DNA of 50,992 nt from an uncultured Spartobacteria bacterium (GTDB lineage Bacteria > Verrucomicrobiota > Verrucomicrobiia > Chthoniobacterales > Terrimicrobiaceae), in NCBI GenBank assembly GCA_937960895.1, contig CALCJD010000145.1, positions 1-50,992 of the forward strand, in the 5' to 3' direction. A model generated the notes under the pieces. The model was not told where the DNA came from, searched no databases, and saw only the letters and a program-made list of their open reading frames with translations. Shown here piece after piece: positions 1 to 17,001 of this stretch (the first letter of the stretch is position 1; each line of letters begins with the position of its first letter). The position numbers and the translations under genes were made by a program.

Positions 1-2892
1 GACCGCCGATGCGGGCATTCCGCCCGCCACTGGTTCCCCTTGGGCGTTGGACGTTGGATGTTCGGCGTTGGGCGTTCCGCTTTCCATCGTTTCCAGCAGC
101 CTCACCGCCAGATACTCGGCCCGATAGACATCACGATTTTCCGAAACCACCTCCTGGTCCCAGCAGTCGCGGGTGGCGAGGAAGGCGGGGTCGGTGATGG
201 GGTCGAAGTAGCGGGTGCCGGTGAGGTGGATGAACTGCTGGCCGTCGCGGTGGACGATGGTGAGGTCCAGCGGCTGGGTGTTGACGTTGAACTGGTGGCG
301 TCCGATCTGGATGACGCCGGGGCCGCCGGCAAAAAGCTCCTGGCGGTCCTTGAGCTGCCGGATTGCTTCCTGTCCGAGGCTCTTCAACCGGGTGGCCAGG
401 TCGTCGGCTTTGACGGAATCTCCGAGTTCGAGGAGTTGATCGATGGTCTCGCGGACCTTGGCGATCATCATGTCCGACGCGAGGTAGGTGTTGATTTCCT
501 CGGTCGTCTTGAAGGTGGAGAGCCGGTTGGCGACCACCTTCAGCACCCGTTCGGCGGAGGTGAGGAAGGCGGTGGCGCGTTTGTTGCGGGCTTCGACGAG
601 CGAAACCTTGCGCTGTTCGAAGGCTTCGTAGAGTTCGGTGCGGCGCTCGGCGATCTGGACGATGTATTCGTCGAACTCGGCGAACTGTCCCTCCAGCTCC
701 TCGATCTGGACGCTGATACGGTTGAGGTATTCCTCGCATTTTTGCGGGGTGTCGCAGAGGTCGAGGTAGCTGGCGGCGGATTGACCGAGCAGCTTCATCT
801 GCGCGGCGAACTGCGCGGCGCCCTCGGCGGCGACGAGTTCGCGCAGGCGGTTCTTCAGCGCGCCCCGGACCTGGTTGAGCGTGGTGTAGATCGCGGTGAT
901 CGCGTCGATGATGCGCGTCGTTTCGGTGGCGTCCTCGATTTTGAGGCTGTTGACGATCTCGATGAGCATCTCAAGCTCGCCGCTGGTCTGGACGACGGAG
1001 GTCTCGATTTTTTTGCCCTCGGCGACCTTGGTGACGGCCTGCGCGGCGGCGAGGAGATCGGCGGCGGCTTTGCGGTAGGGGTCGAGCGCCTCGGGCTTGA
1101 GGAGGAAGGAAACCGCGGAGGTGGAAAGGCGGGAAGTTTGTTCGGCGACTTCCTGTCCGGCGGCTTCGAGCGCGGCGACGTCGATGTAACGAACGTCCTT
1201 GAGCGTGATGAGTTCGCCGGTGAGGGCGCGCAGGGCGGCGAGGTTTTTGACGTAGTCGCCGAGGGACCGGAAATTCGCGCGCCGGATTTCGTCGAAGCGT
1301 TCGGAGCAGCGTTTGCGGACGGCCTCGACCTGGGCGACGGCTTCGCGCTGGAGGCGGAGGACCTTGTCGAATTCGTCGACGGCCTGATTGGCGGCTTCGC
1401 GGAGGGTTTTCAGCGATTCATTGATGCCGAACCCTTCGGGATTGGTGAGCCAGGGGTAGCCGTCGAGGACGGAGGTGCAACGCTGGACGAGGTCGGCGTA
1501 GAGCTCTGCGTAGGGATTGTCGCGGGTGGCGAGACTGATGATTTCGTTGCATTCGGCGAGGCAGCGCACGACCTCCTTGTTGCCGACCTGGTAGAGGAAG
1601 GCGTCCTTCTGCCCGGTCGGTTCAAATCCGGGCTGATAAAACGGCGTCTGGCGGAGCTGGATCTGATGGTGTTTCTGCGGTTCGTTGTCTGCGCGGAAGA
1701 GCACCATCTGTCCGTTGGGGAAAATGGAGAATCCGTGGCAGGTGAGGCGTTCCTTCACCTTTTGCGCGATGAGGCGGTAGGGAAGGAGGACGTATTCGCC
1801 GGTGGTGTGGGCGTAAAAAACGTAGAGTGAATCCTCGCCGTTGGGGGCGTGGATGACGCGTTCGAGAACGTGTCCGCCGGGGGCGGAGCCGAAGAGTTTG
1901 AGTTCGCCGGTGCCGAGGTAATAACCGTCCGGGAAGATAAGCCCGTGATCCTCGGGCAGCAGCGCGCAGGATTCGCCGAGAGAGTCCACGCGGACGACCT
2001 GCTGGGTCTTTTCGTTGAAGATGAGGTGGCGGTGGGCCTGTTCCTTGTAGGGCCGGATCTTCAGCAGGATGAGGTGATTGACAATCGCGTAGGAAATGTC
2101 GGCGTCGTCGAGTTTCTGGCGTTTGTCGTCGACGGGTTCCTCGTAGATGCCGGCGCCGGTCGAGGTGTTGTCCTCGATTTTGACGGTGAGATTGCCGCCC
2201 ACGCATTCGACGAAGACGCGGTCCTCGATGGAAATGTGCGGGTGGTCGCCGTAGCGGTAGGATTCGCGGTCGGGGGTGAGCCAGCGGAAAAAATGCGCGG
2301 GCGGAAACCCGACGCGGCGGTATTCGGACTCGGCGCGGCCGTCGACGTATTTGAGCGTGCCGCCGTCGAAGGCCCATTTGAACACGGCGATGTCGCCCGG
2401 ATTGTTTCCGGTGTGAAACACCATGTAGAGGCTGCCGCTGATGAGGGAAAATTTCGAAAAGGTGGTCTTTTCGTAGACGGTGTAGATCCGTTTGAAGTCG
2501 CTGAGGAACCGCGGATCCTCGATGTCGAGAAGCGGTTCCTCGCGGAAGACGCCGGCCTCCTCGTCGCGGCGGTAGATGCCGAAGACGTCGGAGAGTTCCA
2601 TTTCCTTCTTGAGGCCAAAACGGACGTTGAAGCCGAAGAGGAAGCGGCTGTTGCCGAGTTGCACCATGTCGGCCGGGACGCAGTTGTGTTCGGTGTTGAC
2701 GCGGTCGGCCTGGAGGATGCGGGTTTCGACGGCGCCGAAAACCTCCTGGCGGCGGGCGTCGAGTTGTTTGGTGCGTTCGCGCAGGGCATCCGCCTGCGCG
2801 CCGAGGCGCTGGCGGATGATCTCGTAAGTCGCGCTGCCGAGGGTCGAGGCGGCGGAGTCGGGTTGGGTGGATGATGGGGTGGGATCGGCCAC
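1..2892 (-). CDS. Large conserved hypothetical protein, at least 960 aa visible, C-terminus beyond the window edge; likely co-transcribed with the upstream flotillin gene
   Basis: I translated the reverse complement by hand in the codon register shared with the antisense plus-strand ORFs 40..1830 and 1849..2874. The result is a stop-free frame with near-saturated GC3 and protein-like sequence (e.g. ...LFAGGPGVIQIGRHQFNVNTQPLDLTIVHRDGQQFIHLTGTRYFDPITDPAFLATRD... near the window start). The frame is bounded upstream by TGA (plus coordinates 2998-3000). The first start candidate is GTG at 2890-2892 (MADPTPSSTQPDSAAS...). It is not in the ORF track because it has no in-window stop. The N-terminal ~450 aa are beta-rich, followed by a long helical region. 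I saw no Walker A motif. Confidence 0.6.
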   Translation of the reverse strand, partial: MADPTPSSTQPDSAASTLGSATYEIIRQRLGAQADALRERTKQLDARRQEVFGAVETRILQADRVNTEHNCVPADMVQLGNSRFLFGFNVRFGLKKEMELSDVFGIYRRDEEAGVFREEPLLDIEDPRFLSDFKRIYTVYEKTTFSKFSLISGSLYMVFHTGNNPGDIAVFKWAFDGGTLKYVDGRAESEYRRVGFPPAHFFRWLTPDRESYRYGDHPHISIEDRVFVECVGGNLTVKIEDNTSTGAGIYEEPVDDKRQKLDDADISYAIVNHLILLKIRPYKEQAHRHLIFNEKTQQVVRVDSLGESCALLPEDHGLIFPDGYYLGTGELKLFGSAPGGHVLERVIHAPNGEDSLYVFYAHTTGEYVLLPYRLIAQKVKERLTCHGFSIFPNGQMVLFRADNEPQKHHQIQLRQTPFYQPGFEPTGQKDAFLYQVGNKEVVRCLAECNEIISLATRDNPYAELYADLVQRCTSVLDGYPWLTNPEGFGINESLKTLREAANQAVDEFDKVLRLQREAVAQVEAVRKRCSERFDEIRRANFRSLGDYVKNLAALRALTGELITLKDVRYIDVAALEAAGQEVAEQTSRLSTSAVSFLLKPEALDPYRKAAADLLAAAQAVTKVAEGKKIETSVVQTSGELEMLIEIVNSLKIEDATETTRIIDAITAIYTTLNQVRGALKNRLRELVAAEGAAQFAAQMKLLGQSAASYLDLCDTPQKCEEYLNRISVQIEELEGQFAEFDEYIVQIAERRTELYEAFEQRKVSLVEARNKRATAFLTSAERVLKVVANRLSTFKTTEEINTYLASDMMIAKVRETIDQLLELGDSVKADDLATRLKSLGQEAIRQLKDRQELFAGGPGVIQIGRHQFNVNTQPLDLTIVHRDGQQFIHLTGTRYFDPITDPAFLATRDCWDQEVVSENRDVYRAEYLAVRLLETMESGTPNAEHPTSNAQGEPVAGGMPASAV

Positions 2893-3138
2893 GTATTTAT
2901 CGCGTCCCTGCAGGCCGCGGTCGGGTTTTGTGGATCGCGTTACCCGGGCCTTTGGCCTGGGCAGTGTTGTTTTTGCCCCTTTGGGGCAAAGACGATTTCA
3001 CCTGCACCAAAGGCGCATCATCCCGTGGCCCAAGTCGGGGGCCCCGGTTCGAAGGCCGGAGGCCCGGGTTGGGGAACCGGCGGCCCGGGGTCGGTCGGCG
3101 GGTATCGCAAAATGGGTTCGTCCTGAAGGGACGGGGTT

Positions 3139-5286
3139 TCATTTTCCGGTCTTGAGCGCGGAATCGGCGGGGATCTCGGCGAGGCCGGCTTCTCGGGCGA
3201 AGGCCCGGGCGGATTCCAGCATGGCGGACGTGCCGCCGTCCTTGCTGCTGGCGAGGAGCTTGGTGAGGAGCGCGGCCACGCTGAGATTTTTGAGGTCCTC
3301 ACTGCTCACTCCGAAATCCTTCACCCACGCGCGAAGCCGGGTTTTGAATTTCTCCGGGTCTCCGCCGAAGAGCGAGTTTTTGACGTCCGTGATGGTCTGG
3401 CTGCTGGCAACGAGGCGATCCACCGAGCGGCCCGTGCCGACGGCGCGGACCACCTTCTGGAAGAAGTCGTTTTCGCCGCCGACGATGTCGATCTTCGCGG
3501 ACTTGAGGGCTTCGCCGACGACGGCGGCGTGGGAGGCGGCGATGGCTTTCTCGACCTCGATGGCGGCGAGTTCGACATCGCGCTCCTTGGCGAGGCGCAG
3601 GCGGAACTCCTCGTGGTGCTGGCCGGCTTCGTGGAGGAGTTTCATGGCCTTGGCCTTTTCCTCGATGCTCCGGGCTTCGGCGAGGCCGCGGGCCTCGATG
3701 CCCGCCGCGGAGGCGAGTTCCTTGTCCTTGATGCCCTCGGCTTCCGCCTCGGCGACGGTCTGGGTGACCTCGGCTTCGGCGCGGCCCTTGGCCGAAATGA
3801 CTTCGGCTTCGGCAAGTCCGGCGGTTTTTTCCGCGGCGGCCTTGGCGGTGATGACCTTGGCCTCGGCGAGTCCGGGCGCGGCCTCCTTGGCGGCGAGTCC
3901 TTCGGCCTCCTGCTCCATGGCATGACGTTTCTTCTCGGCGGCGCGGGCCTCGGCGTCGGCGATGGTCTGGAGACGCTCGGCTTCGCGCAGCGCGGCGTCG
4001 CGCGCGGCGTCGGCGGCGGTGATGGTCTTGATTTTTTCGGCTTCGGCGAGGTTGCGGTCGGCTTCCTTCTGGGCTTCGGCGGCGACGACCTTGACGACCT
4101 GTTCCTTCTTGGCGTTTTTGTCGGCTTCGATGAGGGCGACCTCACGCTCGCGCTCGGCGGTCATGCGGGCGGCGATGGTGTTTTTCTCCTCCTCCTGCTC
4201 GACGACGGCCTTTTGTTCGGCCACGACGATGGCGCGCTTGCGTTCGACCTCCACGGCGGCCTCGGCGATCTTGATTTCCTTGTCCATCTCGGACAGGGCG
4301 ACGATGCGCTCCCGGCGGACGCGGGCCTCCTCGCCTTCCTGCCTGGCTTCCTCCTCGAGGCGCTGTTTCTCCTTGATGACGGTGTATTGCCGCTCCTGGA
4401 CGGCGCGGTTCATGTCCTCGGTGCGCAGCCGGATGGCTTCGTCGGTCTCGAGGCGTTTTTGTTCGACGTCGAGGCGGCGGAGTTCGACCACCTTGGCGGC
4501 TTCGGCCTCCTCGTTGGTTTTGACCTCGAGGATGGCGCGCTGTTGTTTGGCGGTGTCCTCCGCGTCGCGGCGCTGCTGCTCGCGCTTGGCGATGGCGGCG
4601 TCGGCGTTTTCCTTTTCGATATTGACCTGCGCACGCTGGGCAAACTCGTTGGCAAGGACGCGTTCGCGCTGGGTGATCTGGGTGATTTTCTTGATGCCTT
4701 CGGAGTCGAGCACGTTGTCGGGATCGTGCTGCTCGAGCGGGGTTTGTTCGAGGTAATCGATGGCGACGTCCTGGAGAATGAATCCGTCGAGGTCCTTGCC
4801 GATGGTGTTCTGGATCTCGTCACGGAACCGCAGGCGCTCGGTGAAAAGTTCGTGGAACTCCATCTGCTTGCCGGCGGTCTTGAGCGCCTCCGAAAACTTG
4901 GCTTCGAAGAGTTCACGAAGCTGGTTCATGTCGGAGACGCGCTCCGGCGTGAGCATCTGGGCGACTTTTTTCACGCTCTCCTCGGTGGCTTCGACGCGGA
5001 TGTAAAATGCGACCGTGATGTCGGCGCGGATGTTGTCGCGACAGACCAGCCCGTCCTTGCCCTTGCGCGTGATCTCGAGCTTTTTCACCGAGATGTCGAT
5101 GATGTGGTAGGTCTGCAGGAACGGGATCCGGATCATCCAGTCGAAGGCGACCTGGAGTCCGCCGAATCCGGTCTTCACCCCGGCGCGTCCCGGCTGGATC
5201 TTCCGGATGCACAAAAAGAAGAAGGCGAGGAACGCGGTGATTATGATGGCGAGGCCGATCAGAATGAGAATCTGCGTTACGGACAT
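3139..5286 (-). CDS. Flotillin-like SPFH/band-7 domain protein with an N-terminal TM helix and a long Glu/Ala-rich coiled-coil tail
   Basis: 715-aa ORF with an N-terminal hydrophobic helix (ILILIGLAIIITAFLAFFFL) and an SPFH core (GLQVAFDWMIRIPFLQTYHIIDISVKKLEI...). It has a long EA-rich coiled coil (AEAEAEGIKDKELASAAGIEARGLAEA...) typical of bacterial flotillins (YqiK/FloA type). The upstream intergenic region 5287-5610 is AT-rich. Confidence 0.85.
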   Translation of the reverse strand: MSVTQILILIGLAIIITAFLAFFFLCIRKIQPGRAGVKTGFGGLQVAFDWMIRIPFLQTYHIIDISVKKLEITRKGKDGLVCRDNIRADITVAFYIRVEATEESVKKVAQMLTPERVSDMNQLRELFEAKFSEALKTAGKQMEFHELFTERLRFRDEIQNTIGKDLDGFILQDVAIDYLEQTPLEQHDPDNVLDSEGIKKITQITQRERVLANEFAQRAQVNIEKENADAAIAKREQQRRDAEDTAKQQRAILEVKTNEEAEAAKVVELRRLDVEQKRLETDEAIRLRTEDMNRAVQERQYTVIKEKQRLEEEARQEGEEARVRRERIVALSEMDKEIKIAEAAVEVERKRAIVVAEQKAVVEQEEEKNTIAARMTAEREREVALIEADKNAKKEQVVKVVAAEAQKEADRNLAEAEKIKTITAADAARDAALREAERLQTIADAEARAAEKKRHAMEQEAEGLAAKEAAPGLAEAKVITAKAAAEKTAGLAEAEVISAKGRAEAEVTQTVAEAEAEGIKDKELASAAGIEARGLAEARSIEEKAKAMKLLHEAGQHHEEFRLRLAKERDVELAAIEVEKAIAASHAAVVGEALKSAKIDIVGGENDFFQKVVRAVGTGRSVDRLVASSQTITDVKNSLFGGDPEKFKTRLRAWVKDFGVSSEDLKNLSVAALLTKLLASSKDGGTSAMLESARAFAREAGLAEIPADSALKTGK

Positions 5287-5610
5287 GGGCTGTGATGGGT
5301 TGTCGTCTCGAAAGCTCCTTCCTGCAAAGCAAACGACCAGGTGCCCGCGGGGAGAGAAGTCAAGGTGAGGTTGCGCGAATCAGATGCGTCCAGTGGTCGA
5401 TATGCAAGGAAATCCGAAGCAAAAAATTCGGCACCGATCGGGGTGGGCTGGGGGGAGTTTGCTTTGTCTTCATAAGACCTGAGGAAATAAGCTTTCAAAG
5501 GTGCAAGAAAATAAACGACTTATAAAAAAACGGGATGTCTGGGTGCGTGGGAAAAGGGGGCGGGAACAAGGGAGGCCGGCAAAATTTTCTCACTCCCGGC
5601 TGGCTTCCGT

Positions 5611-6075
5611 TTGGGATCCCGCTTAGGAATCGCCGTCATGTGGCTGGTGTATGCGCTGGCGGCGGCGGTGATTTGGGGAATCAGTTACGCGGCGAGCGGC
5701 CGGGCGATTGACCGCGGGATGTCGCCGCTCGGGATGTTTTTCAGCTACACGCTGATTGGAGCCGTGGCGGCGGCGGTGGTGATGCTGGTCACGGGACGCC
5801 TGGGTGCGTTTCCGGCGGAAGTGCGCGGTTTGGGTCGGGATGTGGGGTGGTTTCTCCTGGCCGTTGTCACTTCGGCCGGCGGGGCGCTGCTCATTTACAT
5901 GGCGATCGGTGAAAAGAACGCCACCCTGGCATCCCTGATCGAGATTTCGTATCCGGTGTTCGTCGCGATCTTTGCGTGGCTGTTTTTCCGGGAAACGCAG
6001 TTCAACGCGGCGACGATCGTGGGCGGCGCGATGATCCTCGGCGGAGTGGCGGTGGTGTATTTGGGAAACCGTTAG
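5611..6075 (+). CDS. Small EamA/DMT-like membrane protein (4 TM helices)
   Basis: 154-aa ORF with four hydrophobic helices and glycine-rich DMT-like helix ends (LILGGVAVVYLGN). Half-size DMT family architecture. Confidence 0.6.
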   Translation: MGSRLGIAVMWLVYALAAAVIWGISYAASGRAIDRGMSPLGMFFSYTLIGAVAAAVVMLVTGRLGAFPAEVRGLGRDVGWFLLAVVTSAGGALLIYMAIGEKNATLASLIEISYPVFVAIFAWLFFRETQFNAATIVGGAMILGGVAVVYLGNR

Positions 6076-6101
6076 GCCCGAGGGGCGGAAGGGGCGGAGT
6101 C

Positions 6102-6464
6102 TTATTGATCGTCCTGATCTTCGCAGGCGGAGAGCCGTTGATCGCGTTCGGCTTCCTCGAGGCCTTCATTGAAAAGCTGTTCGACGGGACTCTCCTCATC
6201 CTCGGGTCCGATGCGCGGAGCCTGGTGACCGGCTGATCCGGCGGCTTCACTCCAGAGGCGCACCGGATGTTCGGTTTCGTCGGCTTCGGGAGCCGGCGGT
6301 GGTCCGGCATGAAGCAACTCCTCGCGGGCGCGGGCGCGGTCCACGGCATTCGCGGCGTTTCGACCGTCCATGCGGGCGATTTCCTGCGCCCGTCGTTCGA
6401 GATCACTCTCACTGAGTTCGCCGATGCCGGCGCCGTGGATTTGGATTCTTCCGGGAGTGTTCAT
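6102..6464 (-). CDS. Hypothetical acidic protein
   Basis: 120-aa ORF with GC3-rich codon usage when translated by hand. No recognisable domain. Convergent with the EamA-like gene. Confidence 0.45.
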   Translation of the reverse strand: MNTPGRIQIHGAGIGELSESDLERRAQEIARMDGRNAANAVDRARAREELLHAGPPPAPEADETEHPVRLWSEAAGSAGHQAPRIGPEDEESPVEQLFNEGLEEAERDQRLSACEDQDDQ

Positions 6465-6609
6465 AGGCGAGGAGCGTGGATGGTTGCGGGGGAATCGTGT
6501 GCCATGACGCAGGTGCGTGGATTCAACTCCGGCGCGCCTCAGGGCGCGTTCAGGGTGGACCCCGATTGTCGTCCCGACGGCGGGAAGTTACAAGTTTTCC
6601 ATTCGCCAA

Positions 6610-6792
6610 ATGAGTACGCAAACCGACACCTGCAGAGAACGGAGCAAACGGAGCGAAAACAAACCGGAGAACAACCGGAAGCGTCTGGAAAGAATGCTCC
6701 GAATCATGATGCGCGAAGGTCTGGATTTCACCGCAGACGCCGCTTTCAGCGAAATCAGCCTCCCCCGGAATCCGCGGCGGGTCATCGAATGA
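6610..6792 (+). CDS. Possible small basic protein (60 aa)
   Basis: Internal ATG of track ORF 6517..6792 (MSTQTDTCRERSKRSENKPENNRKRLERMLRIMMREGLDF...). It lies in a 435-bp gap between two minus-strand genes. GC is lower than the surroundings. Speculative. Confidence 0.25.
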   Translation: MSTQTDTCRERSKRSENKPENNRKRLERMLRIMMREGLDFTADAAFSEISLPRNPRRVIE

Positions 6793-6899
6793 GGATTTCT
6801 CCGTTCGGGCGGCCGCAATCGAAGGCCGGACCGAAATGATGACCGGCGGGCGCAATCCGGGAGGGTGGAAAAACACGCTGAAGCGTGAACTCCCGCCAA

Positions 6900-7760
6900 T
6901 CAGGAATTTTCGAGTCCGCTTTTCTGTCCGGGATCGGTCACATTGTGCGCGAGGACGGTTTCTCCGAGGTGCAGCGGACGGAGAGCGGGATTTTCCCGCG
7001 TGAGATCGTCCTGGGGTTGGTAGCCGAGCAATTCCCGGGCGTCGGAGATGTCGAGGCGCTTGAAGCGGTTGTCGCTGACGCCGTGAAAAATGGCGAAACG
7101 CAGCCGCGTGTCGTCGATGCATTTCACGATGAGGCTGTGCAGATCGCGGCGTGAGACAAAGCAATCCATCATCCAGAGCGAATCCTCCTTTCGCGCCGTT
7201 TCCATGGATTGGAAGGCGCCGATGCGGAGTGCGATGACGGAAAGGCCTTCCTTTTCGGCATAATAACGGCCGAGGGCTTCGGCGAAACATTTGGAAACTC
7301 CGTAGAGGTCGCCCGGATTGACCGGTTCCGCGGTGCGCACTTGGACATCGGCGGAATAACCGGAGACGGCGTGGATGGATGAGGCCAGGACCACACGCCG
7401 GCAGCCGGCGGTTTTGGCGGCGGCGAGGACATTGCGGGTTCCCTTGATGTTGGCTTCCAGCAGTTCGTCCCAACCGGCATCCGGCCGTGGATTGCCCGCG
7501 AGATGAAGCACGGTGTCGATGCCGGCGCAGGCTTTTTCCAAGGCGGCGCAGTCATCCAGGGTGCCTGTCACGATTTCCCCGAACGCCTCGAGTTTGTGCG
7601 ACCGGTCGTCCTTGGTGCGCACAAGAAGGCGCCTGTGATGATGACCCGGGGCATGACCGGTGTAATAGGAACCGATGCGGCCGGCGGCCCCGGTGACCAG
7701 AACCTTTCGGATCCGCGGCGGCAGGGAAGGCAGGGGGGCGAGCGAATAGGAAAGCGCCAT
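6900..7760 (-). CDS. NAD-dependent epimerase/dehydratase family protein (extended SDR)
   Basis: The C-terminal 286 aa of track ORF 6900..8717 start at MALSYS... (ATG on the minus strand, plus coordinates 7758-7760, verified in sequence). They carry a GxxGxxG Rossmann motif (VLVTGAAGRIG) and a YxxxK motif (YGVSK). The upstream 319 codons of the track ORF are Arg/Gly/His-rich junk overlapping real plus-strand genes. Confidence 0.75.
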   Translation of the reverse strand: MALSYSLAPLPSLPPRIRKVLVTGAAGRIGSYYTGHAPGHHHRRLLVRTKDDRSHKLEAFGEIVTGTLDDCAALEKACAGIDTVLHLAGNPRPDAGWDELLEANIKGTRNVLAAAKTAGCRRVVLASSIHAVSGYSADVQVRTAEPVNPGDLYGVSKCFAEALGRYYAEKEGLSVIALRIGAFQSMETARKEDSLWMMDCFVSRRDLHSLIVKCIDDTRLRFAIFHGVSDNRFKRLDISDARELLGYQPQDDLTRENPALRPLHLGETVLAHNVTDPGQKSGLENS

Positions 7761-12945: not shown

Positions 12946-14242
12946 ATCGCCCAATCTGCTCCGCAAATTGGATTACGCGATTGTGCAGCAGTGCATGCAC
13001 TGCGGCATGTGTCTGCCGACCTGTCCGACGTATGAGGCCACCAAGGTCGAACGGAACAGTCCGCGCGGACGCATCTCGCTCATGCGGGCGGTGGCGGATG
13101 GACGCATCGGGACGACCGCGGCCTTCGGCGAGGAGATGTATTTTTGTCTGGGTTGCCTGGCCTGCGAAACGGCCTGTCCGGCCGGGGTGGATTACACGAC
13201 CCTTTTCGAAACGGCCCGCGCCGAGGCGGAACGGGCCGGGGTGCTGCGCAATCCCAAACGGGATTTCATTCGGACATTCGCCCTGAAGGGGATTTTCACC
13301 CGGCCTGGGCTGTTGCGTTTCATCGGACGCCTGCTTTGGCTCTACCGGGTCTCCGGGGTGCAGTCGCTTTTCCGCGGACTGGGCCTCAACCGCCTGCTTC
13401 CCTACCGGCTGCGGGAGCTGGAGCGCATGACCCCGCGCGCCCAGGCGAAATTTTCCCATCAATTGATCCGCGAGACCGAGCGTCCCGACGGCGAACGGAA
13501 ATACCGGGTCGGATTGCTGACCGGCTGTGTGCAGGACATCGTGCTGTCCGACGTGAACCGGGACACCATGGAGGTTCTGGTGGCCAACGGATGCGAGGTG
13601 TTCACGCCGCGCGAGCAGTCCTGCTGCGGATCGCTCCACGCGCACAACGGCGACGTCGAGACGGCCAAAGTACTGGCCCGCCGGCAGCTCGACGCCTTCA
13701 ATCTCGATTCCCTGGACGCCATCATCACCAATGCCGCCGGCTGCGGGTCGCATCTGAAACATTACCACCATTTGCTCGCGGACGATCCCGCCTATGTGGC
13801 CAAGGCCCGCCTCTGGGCGCACAAGGTGCGGGACATTCACGAGTGGCTGGCGGAAATCGGCATTCGTCCGCCGCGGACGGAACCCGTCGATCTTCATGTG
13901 ACCTATCACGAGGCCTGCCATCTGTGTCATGGCCAGAAAATCACCCGTCAGCCCCGTGAGGTGCTGAAGGCCATTCCGGGGCTCAGACTGACCGAACTCA
14001 CGGAGTCCACCTGGTGTTGCGGCAGCGCGGGCATTTACAACATCACCCAGCCGGAAATGGCGGCCAAGTTGCAGGAACGCAAGCTCGGACACATCCGGAA
14101 GGCGGGTGCGCCGGTCGTGGCCACCGGCAACCCGGGCTGCCACCTGCAGATTGAAAGCGGGGCGCGGAAGTTTGGCGTGGACGTGTCCGTGAGGCATCCG
14201 ATCAGCCTGCTGGCCGCCGCCTACCGTCGTGAACGGCGCTGA
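12818..14242 (+). CDS. glcF: Glycolate oxidase iron-sulfur subunit GlcF-like (2x[4Fe-4S] plus two CCG domains); true start probably downstream (TTG at 12902 or 12923)
   Basis: Two ferredoxin-type Cys clusters (CMHCGMCLPTCPTY and CLGCLACETACPAG) followed by cysteine-rich CCG motifs (CCGSLH...CHEACHLCHG...WCCGSAG). The first 28 codons of the track ORF overlap the IR-flanked insert and are probably not coding. Confidence 0.8.
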   Translation: MLALGNPTNSSELLRRVCRQQRRTRISPLNVENSKLSVERSAQSPNLLRKLDYAIVQQCMHCGMCLPTCPTYEATKVERNSPRGRISLMRAVADGRIGTTAAFGEEMYFCLGCLACETACPAGVDYTTLFETARAEAERAGVLRNPKRDFIRTFALKGIFTRPGLLRFIGRLLWLYRVSGVQSLFRGLGLNRLLPYRLRELERMTPRAQAKFSHQLIRETERPDGERKYRVGLLTGCVQDIVLSDVNRDTMEVLVANGCEVFTPREQSCCGSLHAHNGDVETAKVLARRQLDAFNLDSLDAIITNAAGCGSHLKHYHHLLADDPAYVAKARLWAHKVRDIHEWLAEIGIRPPRTEPVDLHVTYHEACHLCHGQKITRQPREVLKAIPGLRLTELTESTWCCGSAGIYNITQPEMAAKLQERKLGHIRKAGAPVVATGNPGCHLQIESGARKFGVDVSVRHPISLLAAAYRRERR

Positions 14243-15674
14243 ACGGATGTTCGACTTCTTCACCGTCATCATTTCGCTGGTCACGCTGACCTTTCAGCTG
14301 GCGGGGATCGCCTTTGCCGTGCGGGCCGTGCTCATTTCCCGTACGCCGCAGGCGTCCATTGCCTGGGGACTGGCCCTGGTGGTGCTGCCCTATGTCGCCA
14401 TTCCGCTTTTCCTGATCTTCGGGGAATCGCGGTTTTCCGGCTACACCCTGGCCGGGGCGGGCAAACGGAAGGATCTCGACGACGCGCTGGCCCGGATCCA
14501 GGAGGCCCTCAAACCCTTCCGGTGCCGGATGTCGGAAAAATACGAGGATGCCGAGCAACTGGCCTTCCGGCTCCGCGGCCTTCCCCCCACGCGCGGAAAT
14601 TCCACCCGTCTGCTCATCGATGGAAAGGAGACCTTTGAGGCGATCTTTGCCGCCATCGACACGGCCGTCGAATACGTCGTGGTCCAGTTTTACATCGTGC
14701 ACGACGACAAGCTCGGCCGCGCCCTCAAGGAACGGCTCCTGGCTGCCCGGAAGCGCGGGGCGCGCTGCTGGCTGTTGTTCGACAAGGTGGGCGCCAAGGG
14801 GCTGCCGGACAGTTATGTCGGGGAACTGCGCGCGGGTGGGGTGGAGGTGCAGGCCTTCGTGACCAACCGGCAGTTCGGCCGACGCTTTCAGATCAATTTC
14901 CGCAACCACCGCAAGCTCGTCATCGTGGACGGCCGCGTGGCTTTCATCGGCGGATTGAATGCCGGGGACGAATACCTTGGCGAAGGCCCCTTGGGCGCCT
15001 GGCGCGACACCCACATGGCCGTGGAAGGTCCGGCCGTGCAGGCGCTGCAGCTGTCATTTCTCGAGGATTGGTACTACGTGGAAAAGACGGTGCCCGATCT
15101 GCCGTGCACCCCGCGGGTGTGCGGGGACGAGGTCGTACTGCCCTTCGCGTCGGGACCTGCGGAGTCGTGGAACATCACGCCGGCGGTCATATGCGAAGTC
15201 ATCCACGACGTGCGCAAGCGGCTCTGGATCGCGAGTCCGTATTTTGTGCCCGATCCCGCCCTGCGCACCGCCCTGGCCCATGCGGCCCTGCGCGGTGTCG
15301 ACGTGCGCATCATCCTGCCGCAGGGCATCGACCACCTTCTGCCCTGGCTTTCGTCGTTCACCTTTTACCCCGCCATGGCCGAGGCGGGCGTGAGAATCTG
15401 GCGCTACCAGCCCGGTTTCATGCACCAGAAGGTGCTGCTGGCCGACGATGACCTGGCCATCGTCGGTTCGGTGAATCTCGACTTCCGTTCCTTCATGCTC
15501 AACTTCGAATTGTCCGCCGTCGTCCAGAATGCCGCCTTCGCGGCCTCGGTGGAAAAAATGTTCGAAGCCGACTTTGCCCGCAGCAAGGAGGAGGATTTGC
15601 GCAAGTTCGAAAACGGCAGCTTCCTCTTCCGCCTCAAATGCCGCCTCGCCGCGCTGATGAGTCCGGAGCAGTGA
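14229..15674 (+). CDS. cls: Cardiolipin synthase (PLD superfamily, two HKD motifs)
   Basis: Two N-terminal TM helices, then two HxKxxxxD motifs (HRKLVIVDG and HQKVLLADD). Start may be the second Met (MFDFF..., around 14247), which would remove the 14-bp overlap with glcF. Confidence 0.85.
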   Translation: MNGAERMFDFFTVIISLVTLTFQLAGIAFAVRAVLISRTPQASIAWGLALVVLPYVAIPLFLIFGESRFSGYTLAGAGKRKDLDDALARIQEALKPFRCRMSEKYEDAEQLAFRLRGLPPTRGNSTRLLIDGKETFEAIFAAIDTAVEYVVVQFYIVHDDKLGRALKERLLAARKRGARCWLLFDKVGAKGLPDSYVGELRAGGVEVQAFVTNRQFGRRFQINFRNHRKLVIVDGRVAFIGGLNAGDEYLGEGPLGAWRDTHMAVEGPAVQALQLSFLEDWYYVEKTVPDLPCTPRVCGDEVVLPFASGPAESWNITPAVICEVIHDVRKRLWIASPYFVPDPALRTALAHAALRGVDVRIILPQGIDHLLPWLSSFTFYPAMAEAGVRIWRYQPGFMHQKVLLADDDLAIVGSVNLDFRSFMLNFELSAVVQNAAFAASVEKMFEADFARSKEEDLRKFENGSFLFRLKCRLAALMSPEQ

Positions 15675-15948: not shown

Positions 15949-17001
15949 ATGCAAGAGCCCACCCAGACATTGCCTGAGCGTGTCACGCTCAAAGACATTG
16001 CAGCCCGTGCGGGAGTGGCGGTGACGACCGTTTCCTCCGCGCTGCATCGGAACGGACGGGTAAGTGAGAAGCTGCGTCAGTCCATTCAGGCGCTGGCCCG
16101 GGAGATGGGTTACGAGCCGAAAATGGCGGCCCGGCTGTTGCGGTCCAATACCACGGGTCACATCGGCCTGTTGTTGCCCGGGCGCATTGCGGGGGACATT
16201 GGCGAGTCGGGTCACGCCGGGCCGATCCTGAGCAATTTTGTGCGCGCCTGTGAGCAGCGTGACATCCCGTACCATGTGGAAATCGTCAACGTGAAGGAGG
16301 ACTTTGAGCCGCCCCGCCAGGTTGCCGGCGGACTGGTTGATGGGGTGCTGATGGGCGGGTACATCGACGAGCGGCTCAACGCTTGGCTGGAGGCCCGCGG
16401 TTTTCCATGGGTGAGCGTCGACGAGATGGCCAACTACTGTGTGCTGTCAGCGAATGACGAGGGCATGTATCAGGCCGTGCAGAGACTGGCGGCGTTGGGA
16501 CACCGGAGATTTGCTTATGTCGGGCGTCCCGACGTTCATCTGTCGCACCGGCTGGCGCTGGATGGTTTCAACAAGGCGGTGGCCGATTTCCGCCTGGATT
16601 TCCGGCCGGAAAGGGATCAGAGAATATTCAGCGAGTCTCTGCGTCCCGAGCTGTTGCAAAAGGCCTCGGAGTGGGCGGGGGAAATCCTGACCCGTCCGGA
16701 TCGTCCCACGGCCATCCTTTGTCATGACATGGTGCTGGCGCGGGGAATTTGCTACTCAGCCCTGCGTCATGGACTCGACGTACCGCGCGATCTCAGTCTG
16801 GTCGCGGTGGGTACCGCGGTCGACGCCGAAAAGGCCCTGCCCTGCCTGAGCACCATCGAGGTGAATTTCGAGAACATCGTCGATCAGGCGGTGAGTCTGC
16901 TTGTGCGGAAGCTTCGCAAGGAACCGGCCATGCAGGAGGCGCAAATCCGCCGCGTGGTGCCCCAGTTGGTGATGCGGCAGACCGTGGCGCCGCCGCCATA
17001 A
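15949..17001 (+). CDS. LacI-family transcriptional regulator
   Basis: N-terminal HTH (VTLKDIAARAGVAVTTVSSALHRNGRVSEKLRQSIQALAREMGYEPKMAARLLRSN) plus a periplasmic-binding-protein-like sugar-binding core. 350 aa. Confidence 0.85.
   Translation: MQEPTQTLPERVTLKDIAARAGVAVTTVSSALHRNGRVSEKLRQSIQALAREMGYEPKMAARLLRSNTTGHIGLLLPGRIAGDIGESGHAGPILSNFVRACEQRDIPYHVEIVNVKEDFEPPRQVAGGLVDGVLMGGYIDERLNAWLEARGFPWVSVDEMANYCVLSANDEGMYQAVQRLAALGHRRFAYVGRPDVHLSHRLALDGFNKAVADFRLDFRPERDQRIFSESLRPELLQKASEWAGEILTRPDRPTAILCHDMVLARGICYSALRHGLDVPRDLSLVAVGTAVDAEKALPCLSTIEVNFENIVDQAVSLLVRKLRKEPAMQEAQIRRVVPQLVMRQTVAPPP

Follow-up and report, generated by a model that had tools for sequence, protein, structure and literature searches.

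What is the giant reading frame that runs off the edge of an uncultured Spartobacteria contig, and why does it stand directly behind a flotillin-like gene? The question is raised by a 50,992-nucleotide (nt) stretch of contig CALCJD010000145.1 (assembly GCA_937960895.1), hereafter the window, whose first 5,286 bases carry on the minus strand a complete gene for a 715-amino-acid (aa) protein of the SPFH/Band-7 superfamily, followed by the 5′ part of a far larger gene whose orthologues end in an AAA+ ATPase domain. The order of these two genes is near-obligate across phyla, and the ATPase is here considered a candidate remodeller of its SPFH neighbour. SPFH/flotillin scaffolds organise membranes in all domains of life, with the opening, loading and recycling of their cages largely unexplained; a phylum-spanning pair of a flotillin-like protein and a giant AAA+ protein is a natural candidate for that activity, with ties to PspA/ESCRT-III-type membrane repair.

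The ATPase gene at the window edge

Minus-strand bases 1–2997 form one stop-free frame, bounded by a TGA at 2998–3000, after which 999 sense codons reach to base 1, a run with a chance of ~1e-11 on base composition alone. Split by codon position, the guanine-plus-cytosine (GC) content of this frame is 0.65/0.39/0.83, which agrees in pattern with the neighbouring SPFH gene (0.68/0.39/0.85) and is mirrored in the plus-strand open reading frames (ORFs) 40..1830 and 1849..2874 (0.83/0.39/0.65), which are therefore antisense shadows. The earliest ATG, GTG or TTG after the TGA is the GTG at 2890–2892, aligned with the ATG start of the orthologue in the nearest relative (L006, a 425-kilobase (kb) metagenomic contig); the matching N-termini are VADPTPSS... 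for the window gene, MPDPAPAS... for L006 and MADQAKPS... for the orthologue P0001. The large ATPase gene cut by the window edge is a real gene, and its recovery is useful as a gene-calling fix.

Pfam scans of the 964 visible residues gave two named domains, DUF3686 (PF12458; E 1e-163, 545 bits, aa 37–479, profile positions 2–447 of 448) and, within a long helical region, DUF7902 (PF25472; E 2e-24, 86 bits, aa 601–685). The AlphaFold model of the fragment, for which a 58-sequence alignment was used, has a mean predicted local distance difference test score (pLDDT) of 82.6 and portrays the visible part as a beta-propeller followed by a long helical stalk. The features are as follows.

1..2892, minus strand: 5′ part of the ATPase gene, 964 codons (~53%) of a predicted ~1,800 aa (open frame, third-position GC, Pfam, L006 orthologue)
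aa 20–52: predicted N-terminal helix of the ATPase (AlphaFold)
1456..2784, minus strand: DUF3686 domain, aa 37–479 (Pfam and AlphaFold, pLDDT mostly 85–95)
aa 58–415: predicted beta-propeller of roughly seven four-stranded blades (AlphaFold)
334..1599, minus strand: predicted helical stalk or bundle, aa 432–853, with helices of up to 58 residues (AlphaFold secondary structure)
838–1092, minus strand: DUF7902 in the stalk, aa 601–685 (PF25472)
199..315, minus strand: predicted small beta-strand domain after the stalk, aa 860–898 (AlphaFold pLDDT 50–78), kept in all homologues
1..81, minus strand: start of a lineage-specific low-complexity in-frame insert, aa ~938–964, with the GCGGGCGGAATGCCCGC hairpin core (pLDDT <50)

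The most conserved DUF3686 motif, LT[IV]K[VI]E[DN]NT with its flanks, lies at aa 233–263 (invariant columns of the 58-sequence alignment A2). Foldseek matches for the model are mostly beta-propeller-containing proteins, and a sequence search of the visible fragment against solved structures gave nothing useful. Among the top Foldseek matches are IFT-A, clathrin heavy chain and Elp1, in which a propeller is joined to a helical region; a protocoatomer-like reading was nonetheless ruled out on TM-scores of ~0.1–0.3, on very long helices in place of a solenoid, and on the family being equally common outside the Planctomycetes–Verrucomicrobia–Chlamydiae (PVC) group.

Beyond the window, 506 relatives of the ATPase were found at E ≤ 1e-10 among the candidates scored in a search of 5.8 billion proteins, and a propeller-domain HMMER scan of 1.84 billion cluster representatives gave 673 clusters at E ≤ 1e-3, the longest member having 2,036 aa; this is a well-defined, medium-sized family. 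Orthologues are ~1,590–1,810 aa long, the full-length relatives from the protein search 1,590–1,690 aa; they carry a C-terminal PF00004/AAA_5 domain and go under the NCBI product name 'DNA repair ATPase'. The L006 orthologue (1,806 aa) is 82% identical to the window protein across all 964 visible residues, and its C-terminal part scores above the Pfam cut-off for both PF00004 (29.1 bits) and AAA_5 (27.9 bits), with a Walker A motif PPGYGKT and a Walker B motif VDDIQH. Walker A and B are likewise present in P0001, and both are kept in at least 90% of alignment A2. The AAA part of the orthologues has VAT, p97 (VCP) and Cdc48 as its nearest solved sequences, at E ~1e-5 and over the P-loop region only. 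Since the orthologues end in one AAA+ domain, the P-loop of the window gene is expected beyond base 1; no signal peptide was found in the ATPase, which is predicted to be a soluble protein of N-terminal helix, propeller, stalk, small beta domain and, past the window, a single AAA+ domain. The family Walker B motif has a double aspartate (hhhhDDIQH) in place of the canonical 'DE', with both aspartates kept in at least 90% of the 58 sequences.

Much of this had been foreseen in an earlier note made from the letters and their ORF track. The stop-free minus-strand frame starting at GTG 2890–2892 and running past base 1, its absence from the track solely for want of a stop inside the window, the antisense nature of the plus-strand ORFs, and the distance of 246 nt to the stop codon of the upstream gene (3139–3141) on the same strand were all borne out, as was a beta-rich N-terminal part with a helical remainder, which the model renders as propeller and long helices. 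Profile search and structure prediction, which the note had called for, were run on the visible residues and yielded DUF3686, DUF7902, propeller and stalk. Where the note had recognised neither a P-loop nor any named domain, the first half stands for the window and the second gives way to PF12458 and PF25472. Its remark that only plus-strand ORFs are listed in bases 1–2874 was mistaken, short minus-strand ORFs in other frames being listed too (131..739, 1622..2377 and 2061..2789).

The SPFH partner

The gene upstream encodes a protein whose superfamily is hidden from routine domain scans and appears when the N-terminus is scanned alone or the fold is compared. Its features are the following.

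3139..5286, minus strand: gene for the 715-aa membrane-anchored SPFH/Band-7 flotillin-like (YqiK-type) scaffold (ORF, orthologues, fold search)
4744..5280, minus strand: N-terminal transmembrane helix, aa 3–26, and SPFH domain, aa 27–181 (Band_7; AlphaFold pLDDT 80–90)
3151..4713, minus strand: three predicted long A/E/K-rich helices, aa 192–317, 333–469 and 496–596, and the C-terminal domain (AlphaFold)
aa 605–712: kept helical C-terminal domain with motifs HEEF.L.L.K and IDIVGGE..FF..VDR (AlphaFold, and columns invariant across phyla)

Scanned alone, aa 1–215 match Band_7 (PF01145) at E 1.7e-14 with 54.7 bits against a cut-off of 23.6, whereas the full-length protein has no Pfam match even at E ≤ 10 and none in NCBIfam, PADLOC or the PDB sequences. 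The precomputed Pfam column is blank for all 120 full-length homologues listed, whereas N-terminal homologue fragments do carry Band_7; the protein contains ~400 aa of coiled coil, which probably masks the match at full length. With its SPFH domain missed by standard Pfam scans, the pair is easily overlooked. Neither the full protein nor its N-terminus nor two profiles retrieved anything useful from the sequences of solved structures, the one QmcA match covering coiled coil only. The AlphaFold model (pLDDT 72 overall, 80–90 in the N-terminal third) is matched by Foldseek to human prohibitin, HflK/C, flotillin-1/2, stomatin, erlin, QmcA and major vault protein (E 7e-11 to 1e-5, probability 1.00), all but the vault protein at E ~1e-10 to 1e-7; flotillin 9bq2_B aligns over 379 columns with 21% identity. 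The protein is an established member of the SPFH superfamily.

The earlier note had called this protein a flotillin outright, which holds at the level of the SPFH/Band-7 superfamily, through Band_7 and the fold, and does not extend to flotillin proper. Pfam, with PF15975 Flot in its library, gave no family for the C-terminal 253 or 500 residues at E ≤ 1; the NCBIfam FloT profile NF058507 reached 13.2 bits against a cut-off of 700; solved flotillin-1/2 gave no sequence match; and no NfeD/YqiJ partner accompanies the gene. Orthologues, 40–90% identical, are named 'flotillin family protein' or 'YqiK' at source. 'Flotillin-like' is a fair label, and membership in flotillin proper lacks support from the domain, FloT and partner tests.

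Basic residues directly follow the transmembrane helix, so that by the positive-inside rule the bulk of the SPFH protein is predicted to be cytoplasmic and to share that compartment with the ATPase. The SPFH proteins of solved structure build cages attached to the membrane, and two of them, HflK/C and prohibitin, act together with AAA+ machines. By analogy, the SPFH protein of the window would most likely assemble into a large oligomeric ring or cage at the membrane.

Conservation and transcription of the pair

In a genome scan covering one genome for each of 185,579 species, at least 521 species carried a relative of the ATPase, and 80 loci were fetched. In 75 of the 80 the ATPase gene is immediately preceded, on its own strand, by an SPFH orthologue; three of the five exceptions are short of upstream DNA, leaving 75 of 77 informative loci. 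The same order had been met in eight loci (L001–L008) reached via homologues of either protein, from Terrimicrobiaceae, Opitutaceae, Pontibacter, a planctomycete, a deltaproteobacterium, two close relatives and another verrucomicrobial contig, of which six aligned SPFH proteins are 40–80% identical to that of the window. The gene order ranges over Verrucomicrobiota, Planctomycetota, Bacteroidota, Desulfobacterota and Firmicutes and includes Pseudomonas and Streptomyces replicons, at least six phyla in all, across which it is near-obligate. The 50,697 phage records searched contained no copy, and only 13 of 72,556 plasmid records hold one, mostly megaplasmids or chromosome-sized.

Further genes accompany the pair in many lineages. 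A YqiJ-like gene, its product weakly matching PF21001 YqiJ_N, precedes the SPFH gene in 59 of the 75 loci, the verrucomicrobial clade closest to the window being without it, and a CesT/Tir and PspA pair stands further upstream in ~22 loci, all of them Bacteroidota. An operon of this kind, with CesT/Tir-PspA, YqiJ/YuaF, a Band-7 protein and an ATPase, was described by Ravi et al. (2024, mSystems; PMC11237479), in which the ATPase is built of beta-propeller, coiled coil and AAA+ and its partner of transmembrane helix, Band-7 and coiled coil; abbreviated operons, the YqiJ/YuaF protein listed as part of them, were reported to be more widely distributed, and a chaperone-like role in assembling membrane complexes was proposed (PMC11237479). 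The arrangement is also present in Flavobacteriaceae loci. Giant SPFH2b proteins with expanded coiled coils had been noted by Hinderhofer et al. (2009; PMC2636767), with no mention of the ATPase.

Across the 51-kb window no NfeD/YqiJ-like, CesT/Tir or PspA gene was found, and a tblastn of the PspA and CesT proteins of L003 and L005 against the whole window gave E 0.035 at best. The next gene upstream, an EamA-family transporter at 5611–6075, is on the plus strand, a layout shared with L006 and L007, and with this divergent neighbour the module comprises two genes here. Judged from gene content, the module in the window is a further member, reduced to two genes, of an operon type that comparative genomics had already brought to light. 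The linkage to the upstream gene proposed in the earlier note holds up, the same order recurring in relatives at the 75 of 77 loci; its view that the arrangement is not the usual one is right in that this is not the canonical SPFH–NfeD pair and wrong in that, by the same count and by the publication of Ravi et al., the arrangement is not unusual.

Synteny with L006 extends beyond the pair to the divergent EamA gene, an epimerase, a PAS-HisKA_3 kinase with response regulators, a GlcD/GlcF-like pair and a PLD-family gene. The last, on the plus strand at 14229–15674 and also in L006, encodes a 481-aa protein with PLDc_N and two HKD motifs, cardiolipin-synthase-like, and a PLDc_N mini-protein occurs in the Pontibacter operon. 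PLD genes lie inside some published PspA/Band-7/AAA+ operons (PMC11237479); the window gene was rejected as a module partner, being 9 kb off, on the other strand and behind unrelated genes.

On a Streptomyces plasmid, an annotated record lists a flotillin family protein and then a 'DNA repair ATPase'. The P. fluorescens SBW25 plasmid pQBR103 has the order YjfI, PspA, rhomboid protease, DUF2491, DUF350, DUF1190, glutathionylspermidine synthase, hypothetical protein, SPFH protein and 'DNA repair ATPase'; this ten-gene cluster (L089, 84.4–97.6 kb) unites two operon types kept separate by Ravi et al., namely the YjfI-PspA/DUF2491/DUF350/DUF1190/glutathionylspermidine-synthase set and the SPFH–giant ATPase pair. 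Elsewhere genes stand between the two members, a 217-aa ORF and a Y1 (IS200/IS605-type) transposase gene in L008 (12167–13245) and a DUF559 endonuclease-like gene in L003 (7517–7900), which implies that the pair tolerates physical separation.

Two non-coding regions bear on transcription.

2893..3138, minus strand: spacer between the SPFH and ATPase genes, 246 nt
5287..5610, no strand assigned: intergenic region between the SPFH gene and the divergent EamA gene, where the SPFH promoter is presumed to lie

Co-transcription of the two genes is plausible, because the 246-nt gap falls within the family range (estimated median ~150 nt; at most 300 nt in 46 of 75 loci). The alternative, that the genes are functionally linked yet separately transcribed here, the spacer holding a terminator or attenuator and a promoter of its own, is compatible with a shared function and is regarded as unlikely, though worth keeping in view. 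The spacer is ~145 nt longer than in L006, holds a perfect 8-bp GC-rich hairpin at 2972–2990 and a second short hairpin immediately past the SPFH stop codon, and folds with a z-score of −2.2, and whole genes are inserted between the pair in other genomes; against this, neither hairpin is followed by a U-tract, the gap is of ordinary size for the family, the scan of the spacer found no sigma-70-like promoter and no minus-strand terminator-like site (terminator-like sites there belong to the other strand), and Rfam gave no match at E ≤ 1 in bases 1–7000. A REP-like (repetitive extragenic palindromic) repeat was ruled out, the spacer hairpin having no further copies in the window.

In the 324-nt region upstream of the SPFH start, the presumed 5′ leader carries on the minus strand a terminator-like hairpin with a T-run at 5414–5431 (CCGAATTTTTTGCTTCGG ATTTCC), upstream of which lies no minus-strand gene. 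The hairpin may serve as a leader or attenuator element or may have arisen by chance, the scan having counted nine terminator-like sites where 5.4 were expected.

The insert at the visible end of the ATPase gene is not in P0001 (1,591 aa). In L006 the insert is a 127-nt direct repeat (15072–15198 and 15531–15657), its copies 76% identical and 459 nt apart, one of which folds as a long imperfect palindrome (z −3.8). All insert copies, including that at the window end, have the hairpin core GCGG(G/C)CG-N-(A/C)A(C/T)-GCCCGC in common, and the core recurs at 16906–16922 of L008. The insert looks like a small palindromic element inserting in frame, comparable to the Rickettsia palindromic elements.

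Function and relation to known systems

Remodelling or taking apart protein assemblies is the typical task of AAA+ ATPases that carry a large recognition region at the N-terminus. For the pair described here, the propeller and stalk of the ATPase would dock on the flotillin-like scaffold, at its cytoplasmic coiled coil or its conserved C-terminal domain, and the C-terminal AAA+ ring would spend ATP to open, recycle, load, remodel or disassemble that scaffold or, alternatively, to extract or unfold client proteins held in it. The setting would be the cytoplasmic membrane face and its maintenance; the YqiJ/NfeD-like, CesT/Tir and PspA company kept in other lineages points to membrane maintenance under envelope stress, and PspA, CesT, YqiJ and polyamine genes are the recurrent neighbours of the pair elsewhere. 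As a general idea, an SPFH-directed AAA+ remodeller is the favoured reading, held with somewhat better than even confidence, which drops much lower for any specific substrate. A narrower version, in which the DUF3686 protein is a dedicated disassemblase or remodeller whose propeller and stalk grip the C-terminal domain of the scaffold while ATP hydrolysis opens or recycles the cage, is tentative and rather doubtful. If true, membrane microdomains in these bacteria would be actively turned over, as ESCRT-III is by Vps4, and no dedicated ATP-driven regulator of a flotillin-type scaffold would have been known before this protein.

Several points weigh against a remodeller. The ATPase occurs without an adjacent SPFH gene in two genomes (orphans L018 and L082); the idea that the two proteins interact physically comes from gene order only; and the spacer, with its two hairpins, exceeds the 35–101 nt of close relatives and leaves room for separate transcription. 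The window ends before the AAA+ domain expected for this gene, and the double aspartate of the family Walker B motif may make ATP hydrolysis slow or regulatory. Literature searches found no experimental work on the function of the family and no paper naming DUF3686/PF12458.

The name under which the large protein is filed offers a different account, that of a DNA-repair ATPase whose adjacency to an SPFH gene means nothing. It draws on how Pfam describes DUF3686 and how NCBI names the product, on a MutS gene upstream of the pair in L001 and on a weak RuvB_N/RuvB P-loop similarity. The adjacency, however, is beyond chance at 75 of 77 informative loci across phyla; domain scans detected no DNA-binding or nuclease domain; the likeness to RuvB, 18 bits against a cut-off of 282, does not extend past the P-loop, on which ground a RuvB reading was ruled out; MutS is a neighbour in that one locus only; and the gene context is membrane-related. 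Searches found no paper in support of the name and nothing on 'DNA repair ATPase' together with flotillin. That account is scarcely credible, and the name is most likely a misnomer, because the weak SMC-like and RuvB-like similarities do not reach beyond the helical stalk and the P-loop, respectively; thousands of database entries carry it without support. The earlier note had held that placement in a well-characterised family unrelated to membrane microdomains would count against its proposal, and no evidence of such a placement was found behind the label.

A role in anti-phage defence or conflict, with the SPFH protein as membrane sensor or effector and an SMC/Lamassu-like coiled-coil nucleoside triphosphatase as sensor, is slightly less improbable and still far from likely. 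It could appeal to a weak PADLOC match to LmuB (E 7.5e-6, 23.4 bits, aa 606–884) and a weak TrlF match, to mobile or defence-type genes near or inside the pair (Y1 transposase and Fic in L008, DUF559 in L003) and to the copy on megaplasmid pQBR103. Both matches, however, are confined to the helical stalk, and NCBIfam TrlF reaches 16 bits against a cut-off of 350; the Lamassu/SMC-like reading was rejected since the similarity to LmuB is of coiled coil only and the orthologue ATPase is AAA+, not ABC/SMC. The pair has no conserved nuclease, protease or other effector gene beside it, no LmuA-type effector gene was found, the phage records hold no copy, and the neighbours are housekeeping genes, syntenic between relatives, with PspA, CesT, YqiJ and polyamine genes as partners elsewhere. 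An SPFH-directed remodeller remains the preferred reading, a pairing likened to HflK/C–FtsH, prohibitin–m-AAA and ESCRT-III–Vps4. Popp et al. (2022) and a 2025 ESCRT-III review make no mention of this ATPase.

Among known systems, the operon of Ravi et al. is alike in having a Band-7 and coiled-coil protein directly followed by a propeller/coiled-coil/AAA+ ATPase, and orthologues of both window proteins occur in such operons in Bacteroidota, Planctomycetota, Desulfobacterota and Pseudomonas, whereas the window and its closest relatives hold the two core genes only. Canonical flotillin operons (SPFH2 with NfeD2; E. coli yqiJK, B. subtilis yuaFG/floT) share an N-terminally anchored SPFH domain and an A/E-rich coiled coil, and distant orthologues of the window pair retain a YqiJ_N-like partner; in contrast, the window has no NfeD/YqiJ partner, leaves Flot PF15975 unmatched and pairs its SPFH protein with a giant AAA+ ATPase. 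Cdc48/p97/VAT, Vps4 and NSF offer a likeness in the AAA domain of the orthologues, nearest to VAT/p97/Cdc48, and in the logic of an N-terminal recognition region joined to an ATPase, although the one AAA domain of the orthologues stands at the far C-terminus, ~1,250 residues from the start, the similarity is limited to the P-loop, Walker B is DD, and the N-terminal region is predicted to be a propeller and stalk, neither a double-psi barrel nor an MIT domain. HflK/C–FtsH and prohibitin–m-AAA likewise combine an SPFH cage with an AAA+ machine, and the SPFH fold of the window matches HflK/C and prohibitin (7wi3, 7vhq, 8rrh, 9o9z); HflK/C, however, is turned towards the periplasm and encloses a membrane-bound AAA+ protease, whereas the window SPFH protein is predicted to be turned towards the cytoplasm and its partner would be a soluble ATPase with no protease domain, in which propeller and stalk take the place of the transmembrane helices.

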